Positions 3,553 through 30,078 of a DNA stretch of 30,310 nucleotides are shown one piece after another. Under the pieces are notes generated by a model. It saw only the letters and a program-made list of their open reading frames with translations, did no database searches and was not told where the DNA came from. The stretch comes from a virus (lineage: Duplodnaviria > Caudoviricetes). The position numbers and the translations under genes were made by a program. The stretch's first letter is position 1. The number at the start of each line of letters is the position of its first letter. The stretch is from positions 1 to 30,310 of the IMG/VR virus record IMGVR_UViG_3300037705_000202, one strand, 5' to 3'.

Positions 3553-4976
3553 TGGAAACGGTACTCGATCTAGTCCAAGGCTGCGGGGTCAATCCCGGGC
3601 GGCCGATCGGCCGCAAGCGCGAACATCACTGCGCCTGCCCGGGCTGCGGCGGCAGCAAGCGCTTTCGGATCTGGCCGGAAGACAACAACGGCGCCGGCTC
3701 CTATGACTGCCGGGATTGCGGCAAACGCGGCGACAATATCCAGTTCTGTCGCGACTTCCTCGGGCTCGACTTCCGGGCCGCGGCCGAGCGCTGCGGCCGG
3801 CATGACCTCCTGGATGAACTTGCCGGCAGGAAGCCGAAACCACGCCAAGCCAAATCTCCCAGCCTGCCGGCAGCCCCCCGGCCCATCGACTGGAACCCGC
3901 CATCGTATAACTGCCCGCCGGAGGCCTGGGTAGCTCAGGCCAACGAATTCGCCCACCAGTGCCACCTGGCCCTGATCGCCAACAAGAAGCTGATGGACTG
4001 GCTGGCCGGTCGCGGCATCACCGCCGAGGCCGTGGCCCGCTACTCCCTGGGCTGGAACCTCGGCAACGGCGGCAAGCCGCTGTTCAAGTCTCGCAAAACC
4101 TGGGGGTTGCCCCTGGAGGCCAACGAGCAGGGCAGGAACAAGCCGCTCTGGATCCCGGTCGGCCTGGTCATTCCCTATCTGCTCGACAACCAGGTGGTCA
4201 GGCTGCGGATCCGGCGGCCGAAAGCCGAGCGCGATAAGTTCCTGCCGGAGGTGAAATACTACGTGGTCCCGGGATCATTCATGGGCACCATGGTTTTGGA
4301 GCCGCACCGCCGGGCCTTCGTGGTCATCGAGGCCGAGCTCGACGCCATGGCCTGCGCCGTGGCCACCGAGCTTTGCGGCGCCGTCTCGGTCCAGACCCTG
4401 GAGGGCAAGCCGGACAGCTTCGCCCACCAGGTCCTGAGCAGCAGCCTGCAGATCCTCGAGGCCCTGGACGTTGGCGACCTGGGCGCCGCCTCCATCGTCG
4501 GCAAGCGGGCCCGGGCCTGGTGGCGCGCCACTTACCCGGATATCTGCGAACGCTGGCCGGTACCGCGCGGCAAGGATCCGGGCGAAGCCTTCGCGGCCGG
4601 GGTCGACCTGGGCGAATGGCTCACCGCCGGCCTGCCCCCGATACTCACCGTCACCGCCTCGGCCCCGGTCCCAGAAAAACCGGTGGAAGTCATCCCCGAG
4701 GTTTCCGGACAGTCAGCCGTTTCTTCTGGCCTGCGGAAGGAAGGGGGCAACTTTACCAGCCCCGTGGCGGAGTTGCGCGAATTGCTGCGGGAAACCGGCC
4801 TGGTGGTGGTCAAGCGGGAGCGCGGCGCCGAGCTGGGGATCGCCGGCGGGCGGCCGGGGCTGTCGTTCGATCTCAAGCGAAAAGTCGGCCGGCTGATCTT
4901 CCAGGATCCGGAAGTCGGCGCATACATCGATCAATTGCCGGACGGATTGCTTCGCCCGGCGGATCTTGGGCAATAG
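3552..4976 (+). CDS. DNA primase with N-terminal P4-alpha-like Zn ribbon and Toprim-like domain
   Basis: CPGCGGSKRF...CRDCGKRGD Zn ribbon; 'VIEAELDA' and 'GKDPGE' Toprim-type motifs. Confidence 0.8.
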   Translation: METVLDLVQGCGVNPGRPIGRKREHHCACPGCGGSKRFRIWPEDNNGAGSYDCRDCGKRGDNIQFCRDFLGLDFRAAAERCGRHDLLDELAGRKPKPRQAKSPSLPAAPRPIDWNPPSYNCPPEAWVAQANEFAHQCHLALIANKKLMDWLAGRGITAEAVARYSLGWNLGNGGKPLFKSRKTWGLPLEANEQGRNKPLWIPVGLVIPYLLDNQVVRLRIRRPKAERDKFLPEVKYYVVPGSFMGTMVLEPHRRAFVVIEAELDAMACAVATELCGAVSVQTLEGKPDSFAHQVLSSSLQILEALDVGDLGAASIVGKRARAWWRATYPDICERWPVPRGKDPGEAFAAGVDLGEWLTAGLPPILTVTASAPVPEKPVEVIPEVSGQSAVSSGLRKEGGNFTSPVAELRELLRETGLVVVKRERGAELGIAGGRPGLSFDLKRKVGRLIFQDPEVGAYIDQLPDGLLRPADLGQ

Positions 4977-5016: not shown

Positions 5017-5886
5017 ATGAAGATCATCGGCATATCGGGGAAAATAGGTTGCGGAAAGACGGTGCTCGGCCGGCGGTTGGTCGAGTTGCTCGGCAACGGC
5101 TGGGTAAAAGTGTCCTTTGCCGACGTACTCAAGCGTGAGGTTGCCGGGCTGTTCAGCATCCCGCTGGATTGGTGCTACAACGCCAAGGATCGGCTGGTAG
5201 ATGTCATCCACCAGTTGGCTCCGGCTCCGAAAATGACGGTACGCGAGATCCTGCAGTGGTGGGGTACCGACGTGCGCCGGAAAGAAGGTACGGAATATTG
5301 GAACAAGCAGCTGCTGGTGGTGCTGCTTGTTCTTGCCGTCAAAGGAGCCAAGGGCGCGGTGATCGACGATGTCCGTTTGCCGAACGAGGCGACTTTGGTC
5401 CGGACACTGCAAGGCGCTTTGGTCCGCCTCGATATGTATCCTGGCTACCATCAGGCCGCTGCCGGCGCCGAACATATCACGGAGACAGCCCTGGATGACT
5501 GGACGGACTGGGATTACCGCAACGCCCCGGAATTCGGCCAGCTCGATGCCGAGGCCATGCGGATCATCGAGCAGTTTTCCGTGGGCGGATTTTTCACCAA
5601 AACGAACCAGCCGGCCAACGGCGGGCTTTCCCCGGAAGAGCTGGCCGCGGCCCATAAGAAAGGCCATATTGTTTACCGGCCTAAAGTCAAGATAGAAAAC
5701 GGCAAGCCGGTTATCCGCACCCACGACGCCAAAGGCTATGTGGTCGAAAACGAAACCGGCGCCATTCGCCGTTTCAAGAAGCGCTATCGGGTATCGAAAA
5801 AGCAGCGGCGCAAACTGAAGGCCGCCGTCAAAGCCGAAGGCCGCCAGGTGGTTCCGCACCGGTCCGGCGGAGGCGCGCCGGTATGA
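5017..5886 (+). CDS. Deoxynucleoside monophosphate kinase with basic C-terminal extension
   Basis: IIGISGKIGCGKT P-loop, SFADVLK, REILQWWGTD, IDDVRLPNE motifs of phage dNMP kinases. Confidence 0.85.
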   Translation: MKIIGISGKIGCGKTVLGRRLVELLGNGWVKVSFADVLKREVAGLFSIPLDWCYNAKDRLVDVIHQLAPAPKMTVREILQWWGTDVRRKEGTEYWNKQLLVVLLVLAVKGAKGAVIDDVRLPNEATLVRTLQGALVRLDMYPGYHQAAAGAEHITETALDDWTDWDYRNAPEFGQLDAEAMRIIEQFSVGGFFTKTNQPANGGLSPEELAAAHKKGHIVYRPKVKIENGKPVIRTHDAKGYVVENETGAIRRFKKRYRVSKKQRRKLKAAVKAEGRQVVPHRSGGGAPV

Positions 5887-6677
5887 GCACCAAAATCGAA
5901 TGGGCCGAGGAAACCTGGAATCCGGTCACCGGCTGCACGCCGATCAGCCCCGGTTGCGTCAATTGCTACGCCAAGCGGATGGCCAAGCGGCTGGCCGGCC
6001 GTTGCGGCTACCCGGGTGAAAACCCTTTTGCGGTCACCCTGCATCCCGGCCGCCTGGAACAGCCCATGACCTGGAGCAAGCCCCGCCGGGTCTTCGTTTG
6101 CTCGATGAGCGACCTGTTCCACGAGGCGGTCACGGACGGCTTCCTGGTCCAGGTCTTCTCGGCCATGCGCCGGGGCATGACGGAACGCGGCCACACCTTC
6201 ATGGTGCTGACCAAGCGTCCGGCCAGGATGCGCGAGTTCCTCTCCCGGCTGCGTTGGAACGGCGGGGTCCTGGCCCTGGATGCCGTTGGCGGCCGTTTTG
6301 CCCCCATGGCCGGCGTCCAGTTGTTGCTCGGGGTAACCGTCGAAAACAGCGATCAACGCCGGAGAATCCCGGAGCTGCTCAACACCCCGGGAATTCGCCG
6401 CTTCGTCTCGGTGGAGCCGATGCTGGAGCCGATAGATCTCACCCCCTGGCTGCCCTGGCTGGACTGGGTGATCTGCGGCGGCGAGACCGGCCCGGGCCAT
6501 CGCCCCATGTCCGGCCTTTGGGCCATGGATCTGCTGGAACAGTGCCGGGCCTACGGGGTGCCGTTTTTCTTCAAGCAGATGGCCGGCAAGTCCACCCCCC
6601 TGCCCAAATCGCTCCAGGTCCGGGAATTCCCGGCCGGGATGCTAGATGCCGCCCCGGAGAAGCAAAACCATGTGTGA
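5883..6677 (+). CDS. Phage Gp37/Gp68 family protein (DUF5131)
   Basis: TKIEW..TWNPVTGCTPISPGCVNCYA, FVCSMSDLFH, LTKRP, SVEPML, WVICGGETG, PFFFKQ. Confidence 0.92.
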   Translation: MSTKIEWAEETWNPVTGCTPISPGCVNCYAKRMAKRLAGRCGYPGENPFAVTLHPGRLEQPMTWSKPRRVFVCSMSDLFHEAVTDGFLVQVFSAMRRGMTERGHTFMVLTKRPARMREFLSRLRWNGGVLALDAVGGRFAPMAGVQLLLGVTVENSDQRRRIPELLNTPGIRRFVSVEPMLEPIDLTPWLPWLDWVICGGETGPGHRPMSGLWAMDLLEQCRAYGVPFFFKQMAGKSTPLPKSLQVREFPAGMLDAAPEKQNHV

Positions 6678-7071
6678 CAAAATCGAAAAATGCGCCCGCT
6701 ATGCCAGGCTGGTCTGCGAAGAGCTGGATGGCGGCGACGGCTGTTTTCTCCAGCGCGATGAAAGCAGAGGCAGCCAAATATTGACAACCATGTCAGGAGC
6801 CCCCATGGAAAATCAGGAATTACTTGAAGCCAACGAGTCGCTGAAAAAGACCAGCCGGATCCTCTTCGGCGAAGCGGCGGAGCTCCGGCTGGTCGATCCG
6901 CGTGTCGGAGGATCTCGACAGGATCCTGGAGCAATCCAGCAAGACCGACCTCACCGTGCTGATCTCCGCCAAGGAGGAAGCCAAGCGGAAAGTCCTGGCG
7001 GAGGCCACCCCGTCCAACCTAGCCGCCCTGGACAAGGCCACCAGAATGCTGGAGGCCAATCGCATGAGTAA
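6670..7071 (+). CDS. Hypothetical protein (3' part overlaps TerS and is doubtful)
   Basis: ATG at 6670 overlaps the DUF5131 stop; overlaps the next ORF by 170 nt. Confidence 0.35.
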   Translation: MCDKIEKCARYARLVCEELDGGDGCFLQRDESRGSQILTTMSGAPMENQELLEANESLKKTSRILFGEAAELRLVDPRVGGSRQDPGAIQQDRPHRADLRQGGSQAESPGGGHPVQPSRPGQGHQNAGGQSHE

Positions 7072-7648
7072 GGCGATCAAGGAGAAAGCGGCCAAGGACA
7101 AGGCTGAGAAATGGAAAACCAAGGCCGATGTGCTCGAATACCTGAAGAAGAAATGGGCGGTTGAGAAATCGACTTTTTACAACCACTCTAATCCGGCGCA
7201 CCGAGATGGCGGAAAGCTCAACAAGGTCAAGGGCTGGTACCTGAAAACCCATGTCGACGCCTATGCCGAGAAGTACCTGGTGCCGCTCGATGGAGCCACG
7301 GACGACGAGCAAAGCGGTTTGCAGCGGGACAAGCTCCAGGGCGAGATCCGCTACCAAACGGTCCGGTCCGAAAAGGCCGAGTTGGAGCTGGACATCCTCA
7401 AAGGGAAATACCTGCCCCGCGACCAGTTCGACCTGGAGATGGCCGGCCGGGCCGGGGTGCTTGACAACTCGTTCAACCACCTGATCGAGTCGAGGGCACA
7501 GGAGATCATCGCCCTGGTCGGCGGCGATCAGAAAAAGGCCCCGGAGTTTATCCACTTCATGAAGGTTGCAAAAGACCAGATGTTGTCGGAGTTCGCCACC
7601 ACTAAGGAATTTCAGGTAATCGTCAAGCCGGGCAAAACCGGCGAATAA
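6902..7648 (+). CDS. Putative terminase small subunit (Nu1-like; HTH + coiled coil)
   Basis: HTH-like '[22 protein letters not shown]'; Nu1-like '[16 protein letters not shown]'; upstream of GpA; start codon uncertain. Confidence 0.65.
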
Positions 7649-7903: not shown

Positions 7904-8136
7904 AAAACAAGCTGATCGATCTGAACAACCATCTATTCGCGCAACTGGAACGGCTGTCCGACGAAGAGACCACCGGAGAGAAACTGAAAGAGGAAATTGA
8001 GCGCTCCCGGGCTGTCGGGACCATTGCCCGCAACATCATCGACAATGCGGCTCTCGCTCTGGCCGCCAGAAAGGCTTTGTACGACAAGGTGCCAAATCTG
8101 CCAAAGATGCTCGATGAAGGCAATGAAGAAAAGTAA
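7900..8136 (+). CDS. Small phage protein of a type often found just upstream of HNH genes (78 aa)
   Basis: [22 protein letters not shown]...EIERSRAV motif; GGAGG RBS. Confidence 0.75.
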
Positions 8137-8755
8137 ACCGCATCGTTATACTCCCGGGCAGATCAGTTTCCTGCAGGAGAAGTACCAGGAATATTCCCTG
8201 CCGATCCTGGTGTGGGCCTTTAACCAGACGTTCGGAACCTCCCTGGCCGAGAGCCGGATCCGTTCGGCGCTGCGCAATCACCACATCCGGTCCGGGCGCA
8301 CCGGCTGGTTCAGACAGGGGGGCATCTCGTGGAATCTCGGCAAAAAGGGGTATATGGGCGCCAATGCCACCAGTTTCCGGCCTGGCAACTTGCCGCACAA
8401 CCATAAACCGCTTTGGAGCGAGAGGGTGGGGAAGGATGGCTATATTGAGATGTCCGTCCCCGAGCGCAACCCTTACACCGGCTTTCCGACCCGTTACAAA
8501 CACAAGCACGTCTGGCTCTGGGAACAGGCCAACGGCCGGAAGCCGAAGGGGACGGCGGTGATTTTCAAGGACGGCGATATTCGCAACTTCGAGCCTGATA
8601 ACCTGGTGCTGGTTACCCGAACCGAGTTGCTGGCCATGAATCTGCACGGTTACAAGGACCAGCCCGCGGAGCTAAAACCTTCGATCCTGGCTCTGGCGAA
8701 AGTTGAGGCCAAGGCAGGAATAAGGACGCGTCCCGCTCGCGGACGAAATAGGTAA
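8123..8755 (+). CDS. HNH-family endonuclease (210 aa)
   Basis: '[33 protein letters not shown]' HNH_3-type motif; F.PGN.PHN repeat; stop codon lies inside the attC core at 8750-8756. Confidence 0.8.
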
Positions 8756-8839
8756 CGATTGAAGCCAGGCGACCGCGCCTGGGAAACTTGCCCGCAAGGC
8801 CGTCCGCTCCCCGCGGTCGGCTGGGCTGACTGGTTGTAC
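8750..8839 (-). other. attC: attC site (90 bp), distal
   Basis: Minus strand: R'' GTACAAC, 5-nt CAGTC, L'' AGCCCAGC ... L' CCTGGCT, 6-nt TCAATC, R' GTTACCT; extra C in L'' (extrahelical G on bottom strand); stem continues CGACCGCG/CGCGGTCG. Confidence 0.85.
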
Positions 8840-8861
8840 TTCAAAGCCGAGGAGGAACGAT

Positions 8862-9065
8862 ATGCCGAAAGCAGCAATTGCCATAGACGATTGGAAGTTG
8901 CCTATTTTTGAGCGCCATTTGGCCGGTGCTGGGTATGAGTTTGGACAACACCCCGGCCTGACCGGAAACACTTTGACGCTTACCGTGACCACACCATGCT
9001 TAAACGCTTTGGCGGTGGTGGTGCGGGAAGCAAATACCGAAGCTGCAAAAAGGAGAATGCAATGA
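8862..9065 (+). CDS. Cassette 3 ORF a, hypothetical protein (67 aa)
   Basis: GAGGAGG RBS; ATGA coupling to the next ORF; inside cassette 8756-9389. Confidence 0.75.
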   Translation: MPKAAIAIDDWKLPIFERHLAGAGYEFGQHPGLTGNTLTLTVTTPCLNALAVVVREANTEAAKRRMQ

Positions 9066-9382
9066 GCGAACAACCGAAAACCTGCATGATCGACGGCGAA
9101 GCCGTGGATCCCAACCACCGAGATATTAACCCGGCCACTGGGATGCAAAAGGGCTACGTCGTTCTGTGTCCTGAAGAGAGAGCCAAGGGGTTTGTCCGGC
9201 CGGTGCGCCGGAGCTACAGACACACCAAATGCGGCACGGTGACGACGATGGGCCAAGCCCTGGCCGAGACATACGCCCGTGACCCGAAGTTTTACAGCGG
9301 CACATTCTGTTGTGGTTGTGGCACCCATTTTCCGGTTGCGGGTTTCACATGGGAGCCGGATGGCTCCGTAGTGGGTTCTTGA
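9062..9382 (+). CDS. Cassette 3 ORF b, putative Zn-binding phage protein (106 aa)
   Basis: AGGAG RBS; HTKC...CCGC metal-binding pattern; stop 1 nt before the attC core at 9384. Confidence 0.75.
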   Translation: MSEQPKTCMIDGEAVDPNHRDINPATGMQKGYVVLCPEERAKGFVRPVRRSYRHTKCGTVTTMGQALAETYARDPKFYSGTFCCGCGTHFPVAGFTWEPDGSVVGS

Positions 9383-9383
9383 A

Positions 9384-9472
9384 GTACAACGCCGAACTAA
9401 CCAGACCGGGGCTGGTGGCCGGAGATAGTTCACGCCGGATTTGCCCCGGTCTGGTTTAGAGATTTGTTAAAC
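9384..9472 (-). other. attC: attC site (89 bp), middle
   Basis: Minus strand: GTTTAAC-AAATC-TCTAAACCAGACCGGGGC ... GCCCCGGTCTGGTTAGT-TCGGC-GTTGTAC; 16-bp stem with one unpaired base on the R''/L'' arm. Confidence 0.88.
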
Positions 9473-9491
9473 CTTTTTATGGCTAGACAAT

Positions 9492-9701
9492 ATGCTGAAA
9501 CGATTGATTTGCAGGACGCTCGGGCATCGCTGGCGGCGTGAAACCATTACCCTGGAGGGCAACCAAGGGCTGGTTTACCATCGCCATGAGTGCCTTCGGT
9601 GCGGGAGAATATACAATGGTCATTTCTTCCATCCGCTGTGCATTTGCCCCGAAACGATGATTGATAGCCATTGCCCTGTCTGTTATGGGCATGAGGTTTA
9701 A
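9492..9701 (+). CDS. Cassette 2 ORF, Cys/His-rich prophage protein (DUF1660-like N-terminus, 69 aa)
   Basis: KRLICRTLGHRW...HECLRCG plus C.C...HCPVC; TAA lies inside core GTTTAAC (9696-9702); RBS weak. Confidence 0.6.
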   Translation: MLKRLICRTLGHRWRRETITLEGNQGLVYHRHECLRCGRIYNGHFFHPLCICPETMIDSHCPVCYGHEV

Positions 9702-9784
9702 CGGCTTTAATCACTGGAGCCGCCGCCGAGATTGACCGAAGGCCACCGGGCTTTCTCGGCTTCCAGTGCATTAATTTGTTGGCC
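9696..9784 (-). other. attC: attC site (89 bp), proximal
   Basis: Minus strand: R'' GGCCAAC, AAATT, L'' AATGCACT, GGAAGCCG ... CGGCTCC, L' AGTGATT, AAAGCC, R' GTTAAAC; two unpaired bases on the R'' arm (C and T on bottom strand). Confidence 0.9.
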
Positions 9785-9800
9785 ATTTATAGGTGCGGGG

Positions 9801-10001
9801 ATGGCGGTACAGATAGATATTTTGAGCACTAAGAAAAAACGAGGTTGCCCTACTTGCGGGGGCGTTGACGCCAAATCGTGTATGCGCTGCTACGGGAAAA
9901 CCAGAATGTGTGATTGGTTTAATACGTACTCGGGATGGTCACACTACGGCGAATTGAGCGTAGAAGAACGCAACGAAGCCGGCGCGAAGTATAATTTATA
10001 A
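9801..10001 (+). CDS. Cassette 1 ORF, small CxxC-CxxC Zn-finger protein (66 aa)
   Basis: CPTCGG...CMRCYG; fills cassette 9702-10011 between the attC and attI cores. Confidence 0.65.
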   Translation: MAVQIDILSTKKKRGCPTCGGVDAKSCMRCYGKTRMCDWFNTYSGWSHYGELSVEERNEAGAKYNL

Positions 10002-10005
10002 TTCA

Positions 10006-10030
10006 GGCCAACCACCGTTATAAAGCCCAC
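10006..10030 (-). other. attI: Candidate attI site
   Basis: Minus strand TTATAAC-GGTG-GTTGGCC; core is complementary to cassette 1's R'' (9778-9784); no attC-length hairpin or partner core here; 87 nt upstream of the intI ATG. Confidence 0.6.
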
Positions 10031-10099: not shown

Positions 10100-11098
10100 A
10101 TGAATCAAGCAGCATTGCAAAGGCCGCCGGCAGCGGGGGTTGGTAATCAACCTCGGCTCAAGGAGTTGGTTCATGGCGTTTGCCGGCGCCGGCATCTGGC
10201 TATTCGCACCGAGGCGGCTTACTGGCACTGGATTGTTGACTTTTGCCGCCACTATCAAAACCAAATTCATCCCCGCGAGATGGGCGACCAGGAGGTAACT
10301 GGCTACCTCACCCATTTGGCGGTTAAGCGCGGGGTGGCGGCGGCTACGCAGAATCAGGCCTTTAATGCCCTGCTGTTTCTTTATCGCGATGTGCTGTCCA
10401 AGCCCCTCGGCAATATCGACGCCATGCGGGCCAAGCGCACCCGGCGGCTGCCGGTGGTTCTTTCCCGGGAAGAGGTAAAGCGGCTGCTGGGCAGGATGAC
10501 CGGCCAGCACTGGCTGATTGCTTCGCTGCTGTACGGCTCCGGACTGCGGCTAATGGAGGCCATGCGTTTGCGGGTGCAGGATGTGGATTTTGAGCGCAGG
10601 CAGATCACCGTGCGCCTGGGCAAGGGCAATAAGGACCGGGTTGTGCCCATGCCCGGCGCCATCGTTGGCGAGCTGCAGCGCCACCTGGCCGCGGCGGAGC
10701 GCTTGCACCAGCAGGACCGGGCCGGCAAAATCCCCACTTCGATGGAGCCCTCCCTGGCCCGCAAGTTCCAGTTGGCGCCCTTCACCTGGGGCTGGTTTTA
10801 CGTATTTCCGGCCCGGCAGCGTGCTATTGATCCGCTCTCCGGCAAGCTCAAGCGCCATCACCTGCACGAAAGCGCCATCCAGAAAGCCGTTCACCAGGCG
10901 GCTCGAACGGCCAAGATTACCAAGCGCTGCGGCTGCCATACCCTGCGCCACTCTTTCGCCACCCACCTGCTGGAGGCCGGGCGGGATATCCGCACCATCC
11001 AGGAGCTGCTTGGACATAAAGACCTGAGCACTACCATGATCTACACCCATGTGATGAAGAAGGATTCCATACTCAGCCCCATGGACATGGACGATTAA
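10100..11098 (+). CDS. intI: Integron integrase (tyrosine recombinase, IntI family), 332 aa
   Basis: N-terminal 'RTEAAYWHW..F...HP..MG..EV..YLTHLA...VAAATQNQAFNALLFLYR'; catalytic R (GLRLME), K (GKGNKDR), HTLRH, LLGH, Y (TTMIYTH); integron-specific insert 'SLARKFQLAPFTWGWFYVFPA...DPLSGKLKRHH'; GGAGGG RBS. Confidence 0.95.
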   Translation: MNQAALQRPPAAGVGNQPRLKELVHGVCRRRHLAIRTEAAYWHWIVDFCRHYQNQIHPREMGDQEVTGYLTHLAVKRGVAAATQNQAFNALLFLYRDVLSKPLGNIDAMRAKRTRRLPVVLSREEVKRLLGRMTGQHWLIASLLYGSGLRLMEAMRLRVQDVDFERRQITVRLGKGNKDRVVPMPGAIVGELQRHLAAAERLHQQDRAGKIPTSMEPSLARKFQLAPFTWGWFYVFPARQRAIDPLSGKLKRHHLHESAIQKAVHQAARTAKITKRCGCHTLRHSFATHLLEAGRDIRTIQELLGHKDLSTTMIYTHVMKKDSILSPMDMDD

Positions 11099-11100
11099 CG

Positions 11101-13035
11101 GTGGAGTCAGTGCAAAACCACATCCCCGGCCTCACCTCAGCCGTGATCATCCGCTCCGATGCCCCCTGGCTGCCGGAGTCGCTGCGCGATCGGCCCGACG
11201 ATGTCGAGATCCGCTTCCGGTTTTCAGAAGGTGAGCGGCGGATCTATAAGCGCAAGCGTTTCAAGGGTAAGCCGAGCGAGTGGGTTGAAAAAAATGTGGT
11301 TGTTACCTATGGGCCATATGACGGCGGCAAGTTCGATTTTTCCGTCAGCCCTTATACTCCCGGCGTTCTTGATGCCTGCTTTTTCCGGTCGGTCCAGGAG
11401 ATCTCAGTCTGTTCCGCCCCGCAGGTTTTGAAGACTACCCTTGCCCTCCTCTTCCTGGCATACGCTGCCGCGGTTGACCCCGGCCCGGCCCTGGTGGTTT
11501 ATCCGGACAAGATCACCGCCGGCGACAACAACCGGGACCGCATACAGCCGATGTTTACCAGGTCCCCAGCCTTAAAGCCCTTGCTCACCGGGTACGACGA
11601 CGATATGTCGTCAATCAGGGTCAAGCTGGTATCGATGATCATCTATATGGCCTGGGCCGGATCGAAGATAGCCACCGCCAACAAATCGATTCGGTACCTA
11701 ATCAACGACGAAAAAGACCTGTCCCGAGTCGGCTCGGCAGATGAAGCCGACGATCGGACCAACTCGTATCGATACAACAAAAAGATCCTCAACCTATCCA
11801 CAACTGAATATGAAGCCGGGCCGATCTGGCAGGACCTCACCGTTCGGGCCGAAGTGATTTTCGAATTCTGGGTGCGTTGCCCCAAGTGCCTCACTTTGCA
11901 GGTAATGCATTTCGGAACAAAGGATTCCCCATCCGGAATCAAGTGGCCCGAGGATGAGCGGGATCCGGAGCGGATCAAGAACCATGACCTAGCCTGGTAT
12001 CAATGTGGTTGCGGCGCCAAGTGGGACAGCCACATGCGTGACAAGGCCGTGCAGATGGGAGAATGGCGGGCCAAGGAAGACGGCCGGGAACTCTTTGCCT
12101 ACCTCGAGGCGTACCGGCCGGTGCATATCGGCTTCCACCTGCCGAGCTGGGTTTCGAGTTTCATCACCCTGGGCAAGGTAGCCGCCGCATTCCTGGCCGG
12201 AGCCAAGGACAAGCTGCAGCTAAAGCACTTCACCAACAAGCACGCCGCCGAACCATGGCTCGAATACCACCAGGAGACCAAAGTCGACCGAATCATGGCC
12301 CTGAAGGATGACCGCCCTTGGGGCCGGGTCCCCGGGAACAACCAGGTGGCCACCTTGGTCTACGGAGCCGACAGCCAGGATGACGGCTTTTACTATACGA
12401 TCATGGCCGTGGGCTGGGGGCAGATCCAACCACTCTGGAAGGTTCGGAGTGGATTTGTCACCAGCAAGGAGGCTTTGGCCCGGGTGTTATGGGAAGACCA
12501 GTATCTTGATGCCGCCGGAACTCCCTATCTGGTTCAATTCGGCTTGATTGACTCCCAGGGTCATCGGACCAAGGAGGTCTACGACTTCTGCCTGGACCAT
12601 CGCGGTCAGATTCTGCCGGCCAATGGCCAACAGCGCATGCGGCAGCCGTACACTTACACCAACTTGGAATTTTACCCCGGGAAAAAGGGCGCCATCCCTG
12701 GCGGTCTGCAACTGGTCAATGTCAACACCACCCATTTCAAAAACGATCTCGACCGTCGTCTTGATGTGGCGCCGGCCGATCCTGGTGCCATCCTCCTGGA
12801 CGCCGACACCGACCAAGACTATGCGCTGCAGTTGGACGCCGAATATCGCGATGAAAATGGGATTTGGCAACAGAAAGGAAGTCGGGCAAACCACCAATGG
12901 GATTGTTTAAACCTCTGCCTGGTGGCCATTGAAATATTGGCCGTCAAGGTCTGGCCCATCCCCGGGCAAGCGCCGGTTGAGCAGCAGCGGGAGAAAAAAC
13001 AGTCACAGGGTTCACAATCAAGGAGGAGATGGTAA
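11101..13035 (+). CDS. Terminase large subunit, lambda GpA family
   Basis: Walker A-like SAPQVLKTT, Walker B INDE, 'LSTT', CPKC...CGCG Zn motif, GADSQ nuclease motif, C-terminal 'NHQWDC'. Confidence 0.92.
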   Translation: MESVQNHIPGLTSAVIIRSDAPWLPESLRDRPDDVEIRFRFSEGERRIYKRKRFKGKPSEWVEKNVVVTYGPYDGGKFDFSVSPYTPGVLDACFFRSVQEISVCSAPQVLKTTLALLFLAYAAAVDPGPALVVYPDKITAGDNNRDRIQPMFTRSPALKPLLTGYDDDMSSIRVKLVSMIIYMAWAGSKIATANKSIRYLINDEKDLSRVGSADEADDRTNSYRYNKKILNLSTTEYEAGPIWQDLTVRAEVIFEFWVRCPKCLTLQVMHFGTKDSPSGIKWPEDERDPERIKNHDLAWYQCGCGAKWDSHMRDKAVQMGEWRAKEDGRELFAYLEAYRPVHIGFHLPSWVSSFITLGKVAAAFLAGAKDKLQLKHFTNKHAAEPWLEYHQETKVDRIMALKDDRPWGRVPGNNQVATLVYGADSQDDGFYYTIMAVGWGQIQPLWKVRSGFVTSKEALARVLWEDQYLDAAGTPYLVQFGLIDSQGHRTKEVYDFCLDHRGQILPANGQQRMRQPYTYTNLEFYPGKKGAIPGGLQLVNVNTTHFKNDLDRRLDVAPADPGAILLDADTDQDYALQLDAEYRDENGIWQQKGSRANHQWDCLNLCLVAIEILAVKVWPIPGQAPVEQQREKKQSQGSQSRRRW

Positions 13036-13611: not shown

Positions 13612-13827
13612 ATGGCGATCAAAACCACCGAAGCGCAACTCGAGGAAGTCCAGGCCGCAATCACCAAGGTGATGGCTGGCCAGTCGGTGACCATCGATGG
13701 CGAGAGCATTACCCGGGCCGACCTTTCGGCCCTGCAGGACCGCGAAGAGCGGCTGCTGCTCCGCTACCGCCAGGAGATCGGCACCGTCGCCACCCGGGTT
13801 TACGCCCGCAACGGAGGCCGGACCTGA
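13612..13827 (+). CDS. gpW-like head completion protein
   Basis: 'GQSVTIDGESITRADLSALQ' motif; lies between TerL and portal. Confidence 0.75.
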   Translation: MAIKTTEAQLEEVQAAITKVMAGQSVTIDGESITRADLSALQDREERLLLRYRQEIGTVATRVYARNGGRT

Positions 13828-28266: not shown

Positions 28267-30078
28267 ATGAAACGAATCCAGATTGATCTGGAAATCATCG
28301 AAGGCGGCCGGTTCCGGCAGCCCTTCATCTGGGAGAGCGGTCCCACCGAAGCCACGGCCGTGCCGGTCGACCTTACCGGCAACAGCGCCCTGATGTCAGT
28401 GCGGAAAAAGCTGACGGACCAAGTGCCGCTGCTCGACTACAGCACCGCGGGCGGCATCCTGGAGATCGCCGATCAGGTAACCAATAAGGGCCAAATCAAC
28501 CTCGATGACCTGGGCCTCACCACTCCGGGGATCTGCGCCGATCACAAAGACTTCACCGGGGTGTACGACCTGTTCATCTACGCCGCCGACGGCACCCCCA
28601 GGGTCTGCTTCTACGGCCCGGTAAAAACCTGGGCGGCGGCCCCCGCCCCTGGGAAGAGGAGGCCTAAGATGAGCACCGACGTGATCAAGGTCGTCACCAC
28701 CGAGGTCCAAGTTGTCAAAGTAATCACCGAAGGCCCGTCAGGCCCGGCAGGCCCGCAAGGCGACCCCGGCCCCGGCTACAATCTCGGCCTGGAGCAATTC
28801 TACCAGGCTGTGGCGGCCGGCACCTGCACCGTCTGCGCGGTTGGGACGTCTTTAACCGAAGCGGTAGAAATACAGCTTGAACGGCAGAACTCCTACATCT
28901 TTCAGATTATGAGGGGGTTGCGATCGCGTTTCCCAAACTGCGAATTTACCCTGATCAACTTGAGCCTGGGAGCGCGGGGCTTGGATGACTACGTTGACCC
29001 TGATTACATCGCCGTGACTTTTCCGGATGACCCAACCTCTAATTTTTACCGTGGCGCTGGTGATCCTGACGTGTGGCCGGGGGGGGCTGAACTCGGAAAA
29101 TCCTGGCGCGACCACGCCCGAGACGCAAATGCCGATTTGTTCATTATAGACCACGGCCTCAACGACCTTCAATTTTGCGCCCAGTTCTGGGCCAGCCTGG
29201 TCTCGGCCATTGCCTACGCCAACACTTGGCCAAAGGTTCCGTCTATCCTCCTCAGCACCAACATCCTTGCAACTACGGCGGCAGCGCCTTACGACGCACT
29301 ACAGCCGATCTATGAGGCCAGGGCCAGGCTGACTCGGTTGGCGGCTGAGACCTACGGTTGCGGACTGATCGATCCTAATCGGTACTGGCGGTTAGCCCGG
29401 GATGGAAAGGACGAATTGCGGCCGATCTTGGAGCCGGTCTCCGACCTGGCGACCTGGGAATTAGATAGCGGCAGCGCGCCCTCGGTTCAAACGGCTAACG
29501 CAATTACAGCGGCGGCTGTATGCATTTTGAAATCGACAGCAGTCCAACACTATAACGCCGAAATAGACCTGGACTATACGCCCTCTAATTCAACCACTCA
29601 GGTGAAATTTGGAGTTCGCCGGCAACCGGCTGACGCATGGACCAAAGGGCTATACGTCAGCCGATCAGGGTCGGTGTTGGAAGTTTACGAGTACGAAAAT
29701 GTAGTGCAGTCATGGACCGTGGCAACGGCCGCAGTCGGGGTTAAAGAAGATCTCCGGATCAGGTACGAAAACCATCGAGTCATGATCTGGCGCAATGGAA
29801 CTCTTATGGGAGTAGTGCCGACAACCACTTTGTGGCGCGGTTCCATGTTCATTAATGTCCGCCACGCCGCTCTGACAAATATCAGCCTTGACTCTGGGGA
29901 TTTCTTCGGTGCCCAAGCTGCGACCCACACTAATGCAGAGCTTATCGGAACCAAAACAGTTGAGGACTGGGACGCCGGAGATCATTCAATCGGCGGAAAC
30001 TCCGTTAAACATCCGACCCGAATCGGAACACTGCACGTATTTGGGCAAGCTGTCGTCGAGTTTGTGGCGAAGTTGTGA
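28267..30078 (+). CDS. Receptor-binding/tail-fibre-like protein: adaptor domain + collagen linker + SGNH hydrolase with inserted beta-sandwich
   Basis: 'PVDLTG..ALMSVR...GVYDL' adaptor; GPSGPAGPQGDPGPG; SGNH blocks VGTSLT, NLSLG, DHGLND, KHP. Confidence 0.7.
   Translation: MKRIQIDLEIIEGGRFRQPFIWESGPTEATAVPVDLTGNSALMSVRKKLTDQVPLLDYSTAGGILEIADQVTNKGQINLDDLGLTTPGICADHKDFTGVYDLFIYAADGTPRVCFYGPVKTWAAAPAPGKRRPKMSTDVIKVVTTEVQVVKVITEGPSGPAGPQGDPGPGYNLGLEQFYQAVAAGTCTVCAVGTSLTEAVEIQLERQNSYIFQIMRGLRSRFPNCEFTLINLSLGARGLDDYVDPDYIAVTFPDDPTSNFYRGAGDPDVWPGGAELGKSWRDHARDANADLFIIDHGLNDLQFCAQFWASLVSAIAYANTWPKVPSILLSTNILATTAAAPYDALQPIYEARARLTRLAAETYGCGLIDPNRYWRLARDGKDELRPILEPVSDLATWELDSGSAPSVQTANAITAAAVCILKSTAVQHYNAEIDLDYTPSNSTTQVKFGVRRQPADAWTKGLYVSRSGSVLEVYEYENVVQSWTVATAAVGVKEDLRIRYENHRVMIWRNGTLMGVVPTTTLWRGSMFINVRHAALTNISLDSGDFFGAQAATHTNAELIGTKTVEDWDAGDHSIGGNSVKHPTRIGTLHVFGQAVVEFVAKL

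Follow-up and report, generated by a model that had tools for sequence, protein, structure and literature searches.

A complete phage integron with cassette genes inverted relative to their attC sites, probably read as part of the phage transcript

The window, by which we mean the whole 30.3-kb stretch of DNA analysed here (30,310 nucleotides), is a phage contig that encodes primases, terminase subunits, portal, capsid and tail proteins, and every one of these genes lies on the plus strand. The sequencing runs that contain DNA of the window derive from sediment metagenomes. An integron sits between two packaging genes, terS and terL. Three small backbone-like genes separate terS from the cassette array (8756-10011), which is followed by the gene of an integron integrase. 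The features are listed below in window coordinates; other loci compared in this study carry L numbers.

6902 to 7648, plus strand: terS, terminase small subunit, upstream backbone (phrog_57, E 2e-5)
8114 to 8755, plus strand: HNH endonuclease gene (PF13392, phrog_1891)
8750 to 8839, top strand on minus: attC1, found by structural rule, weight matrix and covariance model; predicted crossover 8755/8756
8756 to 9389: cassette C1, with two plus-strand genes (8862-9065 and 9062-9382)
8862 to 9065, plus strand: first gene of C1, 67 aa, strong RBS; same gene pair in L084 and L085; synonymous bias
9062 to 9382, plus strand: second gene of C1, a 106-aa Cys-rich viral protein of no named family; 6217 homologues
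9384 to 9472, top strand on minus: attC2, found by the same three methods; predicted crossover 9389/9390; joint in three runs
9492 to 9701, plus strand: gene of cassette C2 (9390-9701), 69 aa, Cys-rich, moderately supported; stop in the TAAC of the attC3 R' box
9696 to 9784, top strand on minus: attC3, found by the same three methods; predicted crossover 9701/9702
9801 to 10001, plus strand: gene of cassette C3 (9702-10011), 66 aa, zinc-finger-like; relatives in 10 viral loci; weak NF041910 match
10006 to 10030, minus strand: predicted attI; R box 10006-10012, crossover 10011/10012, complementary to attC3 R''
10100 to 11098, plus strand: intI, intact integron integrase of 332 aa (TIGR02249, 399 bits against a cut-off of 265)
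11101 to 13035, plus strand: terL, terminase large subunit, starting 2 nt past the intI stop (PF05876, PF20454, phrog_15)

The HNH endonuclease gene lies outside the array. Its own TAA forms the TAAC of the attC1 R' box, and no attC of its own was detected by weight-matrix or covariance-model scans. Two further observations concern the backbone. The position of the DUF5131 gene varies: in the window (5883-6677) it belongs to the backbone, in L084 its end coincides with the first attC, and in L230 it forms an internal cassette. Before the likely start of the portal gene at 13827, an extra 71-aa gene was called in frame at 13612-13827.

According to the original prediction, the minus strand is the attC top strand at all three sites, which gives the usual layout divergent from intI, and three methods bear this out. 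The structural rule (on the top strand AAC, a 5-nt spacer, a 7-nt L'' with one extra base, L', 5-6 nt and GTT) places all three sites on the minus strand, and its sole plus-strand match is weaker and falls within terS. A weight matrix trained on 108 chromosomal attC sites from 29 cellular loci gave minus/plus scores of 34.0/18.6, 37.2/-10.1 and 32.0/-7.2 for attC1 to attC3, and ten shuffled windows yielded no match of at least 18. Covariance scoring of both strands, which had been proposed as a check, used a model built from 41 of the 108 sites; the minus strand matched at 24.6-27.9 bits (E 0.0002-0.001), and the plus strand gave no match at the three places up to E 10. The training sites were chosen with our own structural rule, and their orientation is consistent with the genes of the cellular arrays (108 canonical vs 19 inverted segments). 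The two strand marks named in the prediction hold in part: the extra base stands, but the 5-nt spacer of the right-hand arm does not distinguish the arms of attC2, where both have 5 nt and the extra base alone marks the strand. The attC3 body is 89% identical to that of one attC in L229, which carries a different gene. Far from the array, at 29550-29620, a weak solitary attC-like match on the minus strand (E 0.018) lies inside a tail-region gene and is probably a chance match.

The match of IntI to TIGR02249 spans profile positions 5-313 of 315. The residues R150, H280, R283, H306 and Y315, which we take to be the catalytic residues, are invariant across 15 relatives. An attI site adjoining intI is predicted from its core and its conservation pattern: L001 and L165 preserve the sequence on the intI (right-hand) side, and that on the cassette side is variable. 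The distance between attI and intI is 88 nt, and because intI is intact, the array is not a CALIN. Fourteen IntI clusters at 61-100% identity stand apart from the remainder at 58% or less. Two close clusters contain sequences that bear the labels Thermodesulfobacteriota and Desulfurivibrionaceae, so the phage host probably falls within this group.

Four open reading frames (8862, 9062, 9492 and 9801) had been proposed as the cassette genes, all on the plus strand. For three of them this assignment appears well supported by homologues or synonymous bias, and for 9492-9701, the weakest of the four, it appears moderately supported. An 85% identical copy of the two-gene module at 8833-9390, with the same ends, is present in L084. 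Between the two copies, the synonymous and non-synonymous codon changes number 20/14 in 8862-9065 and 32/8 in 9062-9382, compared with 25/52, 30/45 and 7/69 in three minus-strand frames, which show no synonymous bias. Relatives of 9062-9382 occur in 80 viral loci, and its Atlas clusters are 83-91% viral; minus-strand attC sites lie on either side of the relatives of 9801-10001 in three of their 10 viral loci. None of the six minus-strand ORFs matched Pfam or PHROG at E 0.01, and one of 253 aa extends across attC1 into the HNH gene. For 9492-9701 we found one full-length homologue (37%, E 2.5e-5) and one partial viral match. Its family matches are sub-threshold, its Atlas leads are all under 0.9, a word-index protein search was empty, no clear RBS was found, and the codon model at this locus favoured a 49-aa minus-strand ORF (2.7 vs -3.4). 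No family above cut-off was found for any of the four genes in the Pfam, PHROG, other profile or Atlas comparisons. The claim that their stops fall in or next to the AAC of the neighbouring R' core needs a small correction: of the four, only 9492-9701 stops within TAAC, 9062-9382 and 9801-10001 end 5 nt before the AAC and 8 nt before the attI AAC, respectively, and the stop of 8862-9065 lies within the two-gene cassette C1 and overlaps the start of 9062. Two findings had been named that would speak against the prediction, attC sites scoring better on the plus strand and minus-strand ORFs being the genes. Both were examined by sequence, and neither was found.

The cassettes move as whole units, and the cut falls at the R' AAC. 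A head-to-tail joint of cassette C2, present in runs X1, X2 and X4, connects window position 9699 to 9388, such that the end of the C2 gene continues into attC2 again, and this is the product expected if the moving unit is attC2 together with its right-hand gene. The two sites share four letters, and the cut is located within these and not to a single base. Across the joint, the sequence scores as a complete attC (38.6). Its depth is 4.4 against 11.8-12.3 on the flanks in X1 and 2.1 against 5.5-6.2 in X2, approximately a third of the flank depth in both. In X4, the joint takes the form of a self-closing 342-nt record, a length that matches the 312-nt cassette plus a 30-nt overlap. These three runs share one year and habitat and may be a single campaign, and the window itself may originate from X1. 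The joint may represent either a free circle or a tandem copy; the tandem copy is favoured because the C2-deleted form is absent from the records listed for four runs (X1, X2, X4 and X6, the last of which spans only 8742-8892). Run X2 also holds a near-copy of attC2 that is followed on the plus strand by a different RBS and start codon.

The same cut is seen between L238 and L239, where IntI is identical and the arrays differ by whole blocks that break at the left-hand (R') AAC and at attI; the distal cassettes are common to both loci and the attI-proximal ones are different. Because of the C2 joint and these breakpoints, we consider the crossover to be the ordinary one and the genes to be truly inverted within their cassettes, the cassette unit being an attC plus the gene on its right. 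The cassette ends are fully complementary in 60 of 78 inverted segments; we dropped this complementarity as a test of orientation because it is symmetric.

Single backwards genes with their own promoters occur in bacterial cassettes. A canonical array has genes co-oriented with the attC top strand and an attC at the 3′ end of each gene, and the array of the window has neither property. According to the available parts of PMC4889954 and PMC5027507, the window shares with canonical integrons the IntI family, an attI by the 5′ end of intI, an attC top strand divergent from intI, a crossover in the R' AAC and complementary cassette ends. Unlike them, it carries its genes on the attC bottom strand, reading towards attI, with each attC preceding its gene; little space is left upstream of intI, intI is coupled to a phage gene, and the cargo consists of phage accessory genes. 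The reverse (inverted-integrase) integrons of Treponema, as defined in the available parts of PMC4889954 and PMC4909258, are similar in that intI points in the same direction as the cassette genes. However, the relation of intI to attC is the usual one here (intI on plus, attC top strand on minus), and it is the genes that are flipped. Backwards cassettes produced by top-strand recombination also have genes that face the place of Pc, but such an event flips gene and attC together, according to the portion of PMC5027507 available, which states that no natural array has ever been seen to contain these cassettes; the attC sites of the window are not flipped.

Integrons of phages have been described in PMC9892861, and the part available reports, as here, integron parts in phage genomes, functional attC sites and DNA methyltransferase cargo. 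Among its complete integrons, a Vibrio one is described as a subset of the host chromosomal integron and that of P1 as class 1. In our comparison, the Shewanella M16-3 integron is canonical and has an annotated LexA site, and the attC cluster of the cultured phage TJE1 is canonical as well. In the cultured Pseudoalteromonas phage H101 (L337, NC_029094, 490-2558), scoring places four attC sites in the orientation opposite to that of the annotated genes, and the covariance model recovers one of the four. PMC9892861 demonstrates recombination at two attC sites of H101 and calls its array typical; the available part of its text contains no remark on inversion of genes relative to attC. The available parts of PMC8876359, PMC13108822 and 10.64898/2026.09.14.751636 contain nothing on gene inversion, and in the openly available literature on integrons we found no description of an inverted cassette layout. 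We conclude that the integron of the window appears to be a real, active-looking and widespread variant that is built from known parts.

How widespread the layout is was assessed by the survey of ORF against attC orientation that had been proposed along with the prediction. IntI relatives were sampled from viral sequences (3 loci plus the best 80 of approximately 780 stretches), metagenomes (80) and cellular genomes (80), and an upstream attC was present in 43 viral (duplicate L001 excluded), 18 metagenome and 36 cellular loci. Coverage by ORFs judged on length alone was too noisy and miscalled the window itself; it was replaced by a codon model and a PHROG check. According to the codon model, the inverted, canonical, mixed and uncalled segments numbered 103, 9, 3 and 10 in the viral loci, 3, 37, 1 and 2 in the metagenome loci and 19, 108, 6 and 22 in the cellular loci. 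Among the 43 viral loci with an upstream attC, which come from those 3 loci and the best 80 of approximately 780 stretches, 38 are wholly inverted. The majority calls per locus (inverted:canonical) were 38:2 in viral and 2:32 in cellular loci (Fisher p 3e-16), although related phages in the survey are not independent; after thinning at 70% IntI identity, the counts were 24:2 and 0:27. The inverted layout is thus the rule in the phage integrons sampled and the exception in the cellular ones.

The PHROG check, which takes the longest ORF per strand per segment and is free of the codon model, gave matches for 44/125 plus-strand and 2/122 minus-strand ORFs over all checked loci (41/114 and 2/111 in viral loci alone); this check excluded the canonical L222 and the duplicate L001 and included four non-viral loci on account of their inverted call. 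Both minus-strand matches are the canonical duplicated cassettes of the viral locus L201. The covariance model, run over 52 chosen loci, placed 135 of 140 matches on the minus strand, and the five on the plus strand comprise three of the canonical TJE1 and two weaker doubles. Two inverted cellular loci, which hold 8 of the 19 inverted cellular segments, group with viral IntIs at 100% support and are probably phage DNA in bins. A quick IntI tree of 89 rows requires 8 changes for the inverted label, and a single clade is not rejected (AU p 0.29). In the phage genomes, arrays lie before terL in 8 loci, beside an integrase-family gene in 14, before a late activator in 2, before ParB in 2 and before a primase in 1 (76 of 109 flank genes scanned).

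Several minor observations were made in the surveyed loci. Duplicated cassettes occur as canonical twins in L201 (5699-6967), as repeats with no called gene in L204 (204-989) and as a 61-aa gene present twice in L165 (6037-6902). A fragment of the reverse-transcriptase family (phrog_1423) lies directly to the left of the inverted array in L175 (4675-5073). The virus Rctr41k has an IntI-like gene and no attC in the 10.6 kb scanned, and P12002L has no attC in 48,000 of 48,689 bases scanned.

We think it probable that the window holds a complete phage integron, rearranged at the usual crossover and with its genes on the opposite strand, which is likely expressed by read-through from the terS-terL transcript and not from a Pc. 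A Pc on the intI/attI side could not transcribe the plus-strand cassette genes in the sense direction. Expression of the cassettes as part of the phage transcript is consistent with their co-orientation to the flanking genes, the short leaders, the short attI-intI gap and the 2 nt that separate intI from terL. The start codons of the cassettes lie 16-22 nt past the attC in the window and mostly 10-50 nt past it across the inverted loci. The median attI-intI gap is 62 nt in inverted (n=34) and 160 nt in canonical loci (n=30), and the gene following intI is co-oriented and no more than 40 nt away in 26/43 inverted and 4/44 canonical loci. Between 6600 and 11300, a consensus scan, which misses many promoters, found no sigma-70-like site on the minus strand and one on the plus strand, where 2.1 were expected, and the promoter and terminator counts were at chance level. 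A LexA pattern, rare even in canonical loci, was found in 0/43 inverted and 3/45 canonical loci. In contrast, the leaders of some relatives' cassettes, such as the first cassette of L001, are long enough for a promoter of their own, which counts against read-through.

Under the read-through explanation, the whole array, intI included, would be transcribed from the phage terS-terL transcript, and IntI would act on the bottom (plus) attC strand, as in known integrons. Because intI is co-oriented with the operon and the att geometry is fixed relative to intI, only genes on the attC bottom strand would be read in sense. IntI preferentially inserts cassettes at attI. Because of this preference, new cassettes would be last in the transcript, at the promoter-distal end, which fits the shared distal and different attI-proximal cassettes of L238 and L239. 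Because terL or another phage gene sits downstream, selection would keep only short, co-oriented and non-polar cassettes, and the position of a cassette would no longer set its expression through its distance from Pc. Most phage integrons sampled would then keep the recombination chemistry and alter the expression logic. The array may serve as a swap-shop of phage accessory genes, many of them DNA-modifying, in which distal cassettes could become fixed by loss of attC or intI. The named cargo of the inverted arrays includes DNA methyltransferases and PAPS reductase-like, radical SAM and Mom-like genes. A counter-defence role of this cargo is plausible, and the phage-type cassette pool points to a site-specific mechanism that would reshuffle counter-defence genes. 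The cultured phage H101, whose attC sites have already been shown to recombine according to the available part of PMC9892861, represents a ready test system.

Alternatively, the orientation could be set by DNA mechanics: attC would have to be placed so that its bottom strand is exposed, either in phage replication or by being the non-template strand; the genes would simply follow the phage coding strand, some with promoters of their own. Recombination of attC requires a folded single strand (PMC5027507, available part), the plus strand folds slightly more stably than the minus strand at attC1, attC2 and attC3, and attC clusters lacking intI are inverted too (L084, L089, L105, L329-L331 and H101). 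However, such mechanics explain neither the short attI-intI gap nor why intI is coupled so tightly to the gene that follows, and TJE1 is canonical. We regard this explanation as improbable, and it is partly compatible with read-through. It is still less credible that the array is a relic, that is, a captured host integron filled with phage genes by mosaic recombination, in which attC and IntI no longer act. The loss of intI in L084, its truncation in L003, the 75 of 80 loci in which the 9062 gene has no attC nearby and the unlike attC bodies around the same module in 7 of 13 shared-module pairs agree with decay, but IntI is intact in the window, the C2 joint occurs in three runs, the L238/L239 breakpoints fall at the R' AAC and the cassette ends are complementary. 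An equally slight chance is left to a phage integrase that reads the opposite attC strand, which would make the genes functionally canonical, or to minus-strand ORFs that are real genes under Pc: top-strand recombination occurs at low frequency (PMC5027507, available part), attC bodies and genes reassort at the R'' side and minus-strand ORFs exist, but the joints and indel breakpoints lie at the left-hand AAC (R') with attI at the right end, the minus frames lack synonymous bias and family matches, the 253-aa ORF crosses attC1 into the HNH gene, and the L238/L239 breakpoints, the synonymous bias and the C2 joint already largely refute both versions.

Several observations bear on how cassettes of this type arise and what becomes of them. 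In the inverted arrays, the stop codon lies within the crossover TAAC at 25 of 79 internal sites. Where genes of the inverted viral loci L164-L242 run through the crossover, the AAC is in frame in 42/42 cases, compared with 13/17 in canonical arrays, and the final residues and stop of these genes are supplied by the next cassette. Leftmost genes that end at the first attC (-6 to +11 nt) without an attC of their own number 23/43, a count that is inflated because the covariance model found more distal attC sites in L165, L170, L177, L207 and L236. Where gene modules are shared, the attC bodies are near-identical in 6 of 13 pairs and unlike in 7, and near-identical attC bodies accompany unrelated modules in 28 pairs. 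Among the 80 viral loci with the 9062 gene family, an attC lies within 1.5 kb in 5. L084 has no intI; a short degenerate attC-like hairpin (4323-4380) follows the shared module, and terL is one gene further on. In L003 (6094-6846), intI is truncated at its 5′ end and attI is apparently deleted, while the attC alongside is intact. L084, L089 and L105 have attC clusters and no intI in the stretch fetched. As judged from these sequence comparisons, such patterns support traffic between the cassette and backbone states.

A tentative model, which we consider possible but doubtful, is that phages maintain a mirror-image cassette pool and produce its new members from genes of their own operons. A gene that ends in TAA-C would offer IntI a ready crossover target on the correct strand, IntI-driven insertion of attC-bearing DNA at such gene ends would turn operon genes into cassettes, and when attC or intI is subsequently lost they would return to being backbone genes, with a core scar left past the stop codon. 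The available part of 10.1101/2022.09.11.507474 describes domestication through attC loss as well as insertion at short genomic sites. A simple origin by capture at the stop codon is weakened because canonical cassettes also often stop in TAAC (52 of 192) and because complementary ends need a further step. If the model were true, insertion at gene ends would provide a visible and testable way for cassettes to arise and would drive mosaicism among phage accessory genes in general. The same gene families occur with attC sites, without them and with different ones, which may make the long-open question of cassette origin approachable. Among 72 distinct tails of the 9062 family, 10 carry an AAC at the distance seen in the cassette (eight bases past the first stop-codon base), and every other position has at most 3. 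In L085 (4319-4330), L091, L110 and L148, a core-like AAC stands at a fixed distance behind the stop of this family with no attC body, and it is possibly the scar of a former cassette state.
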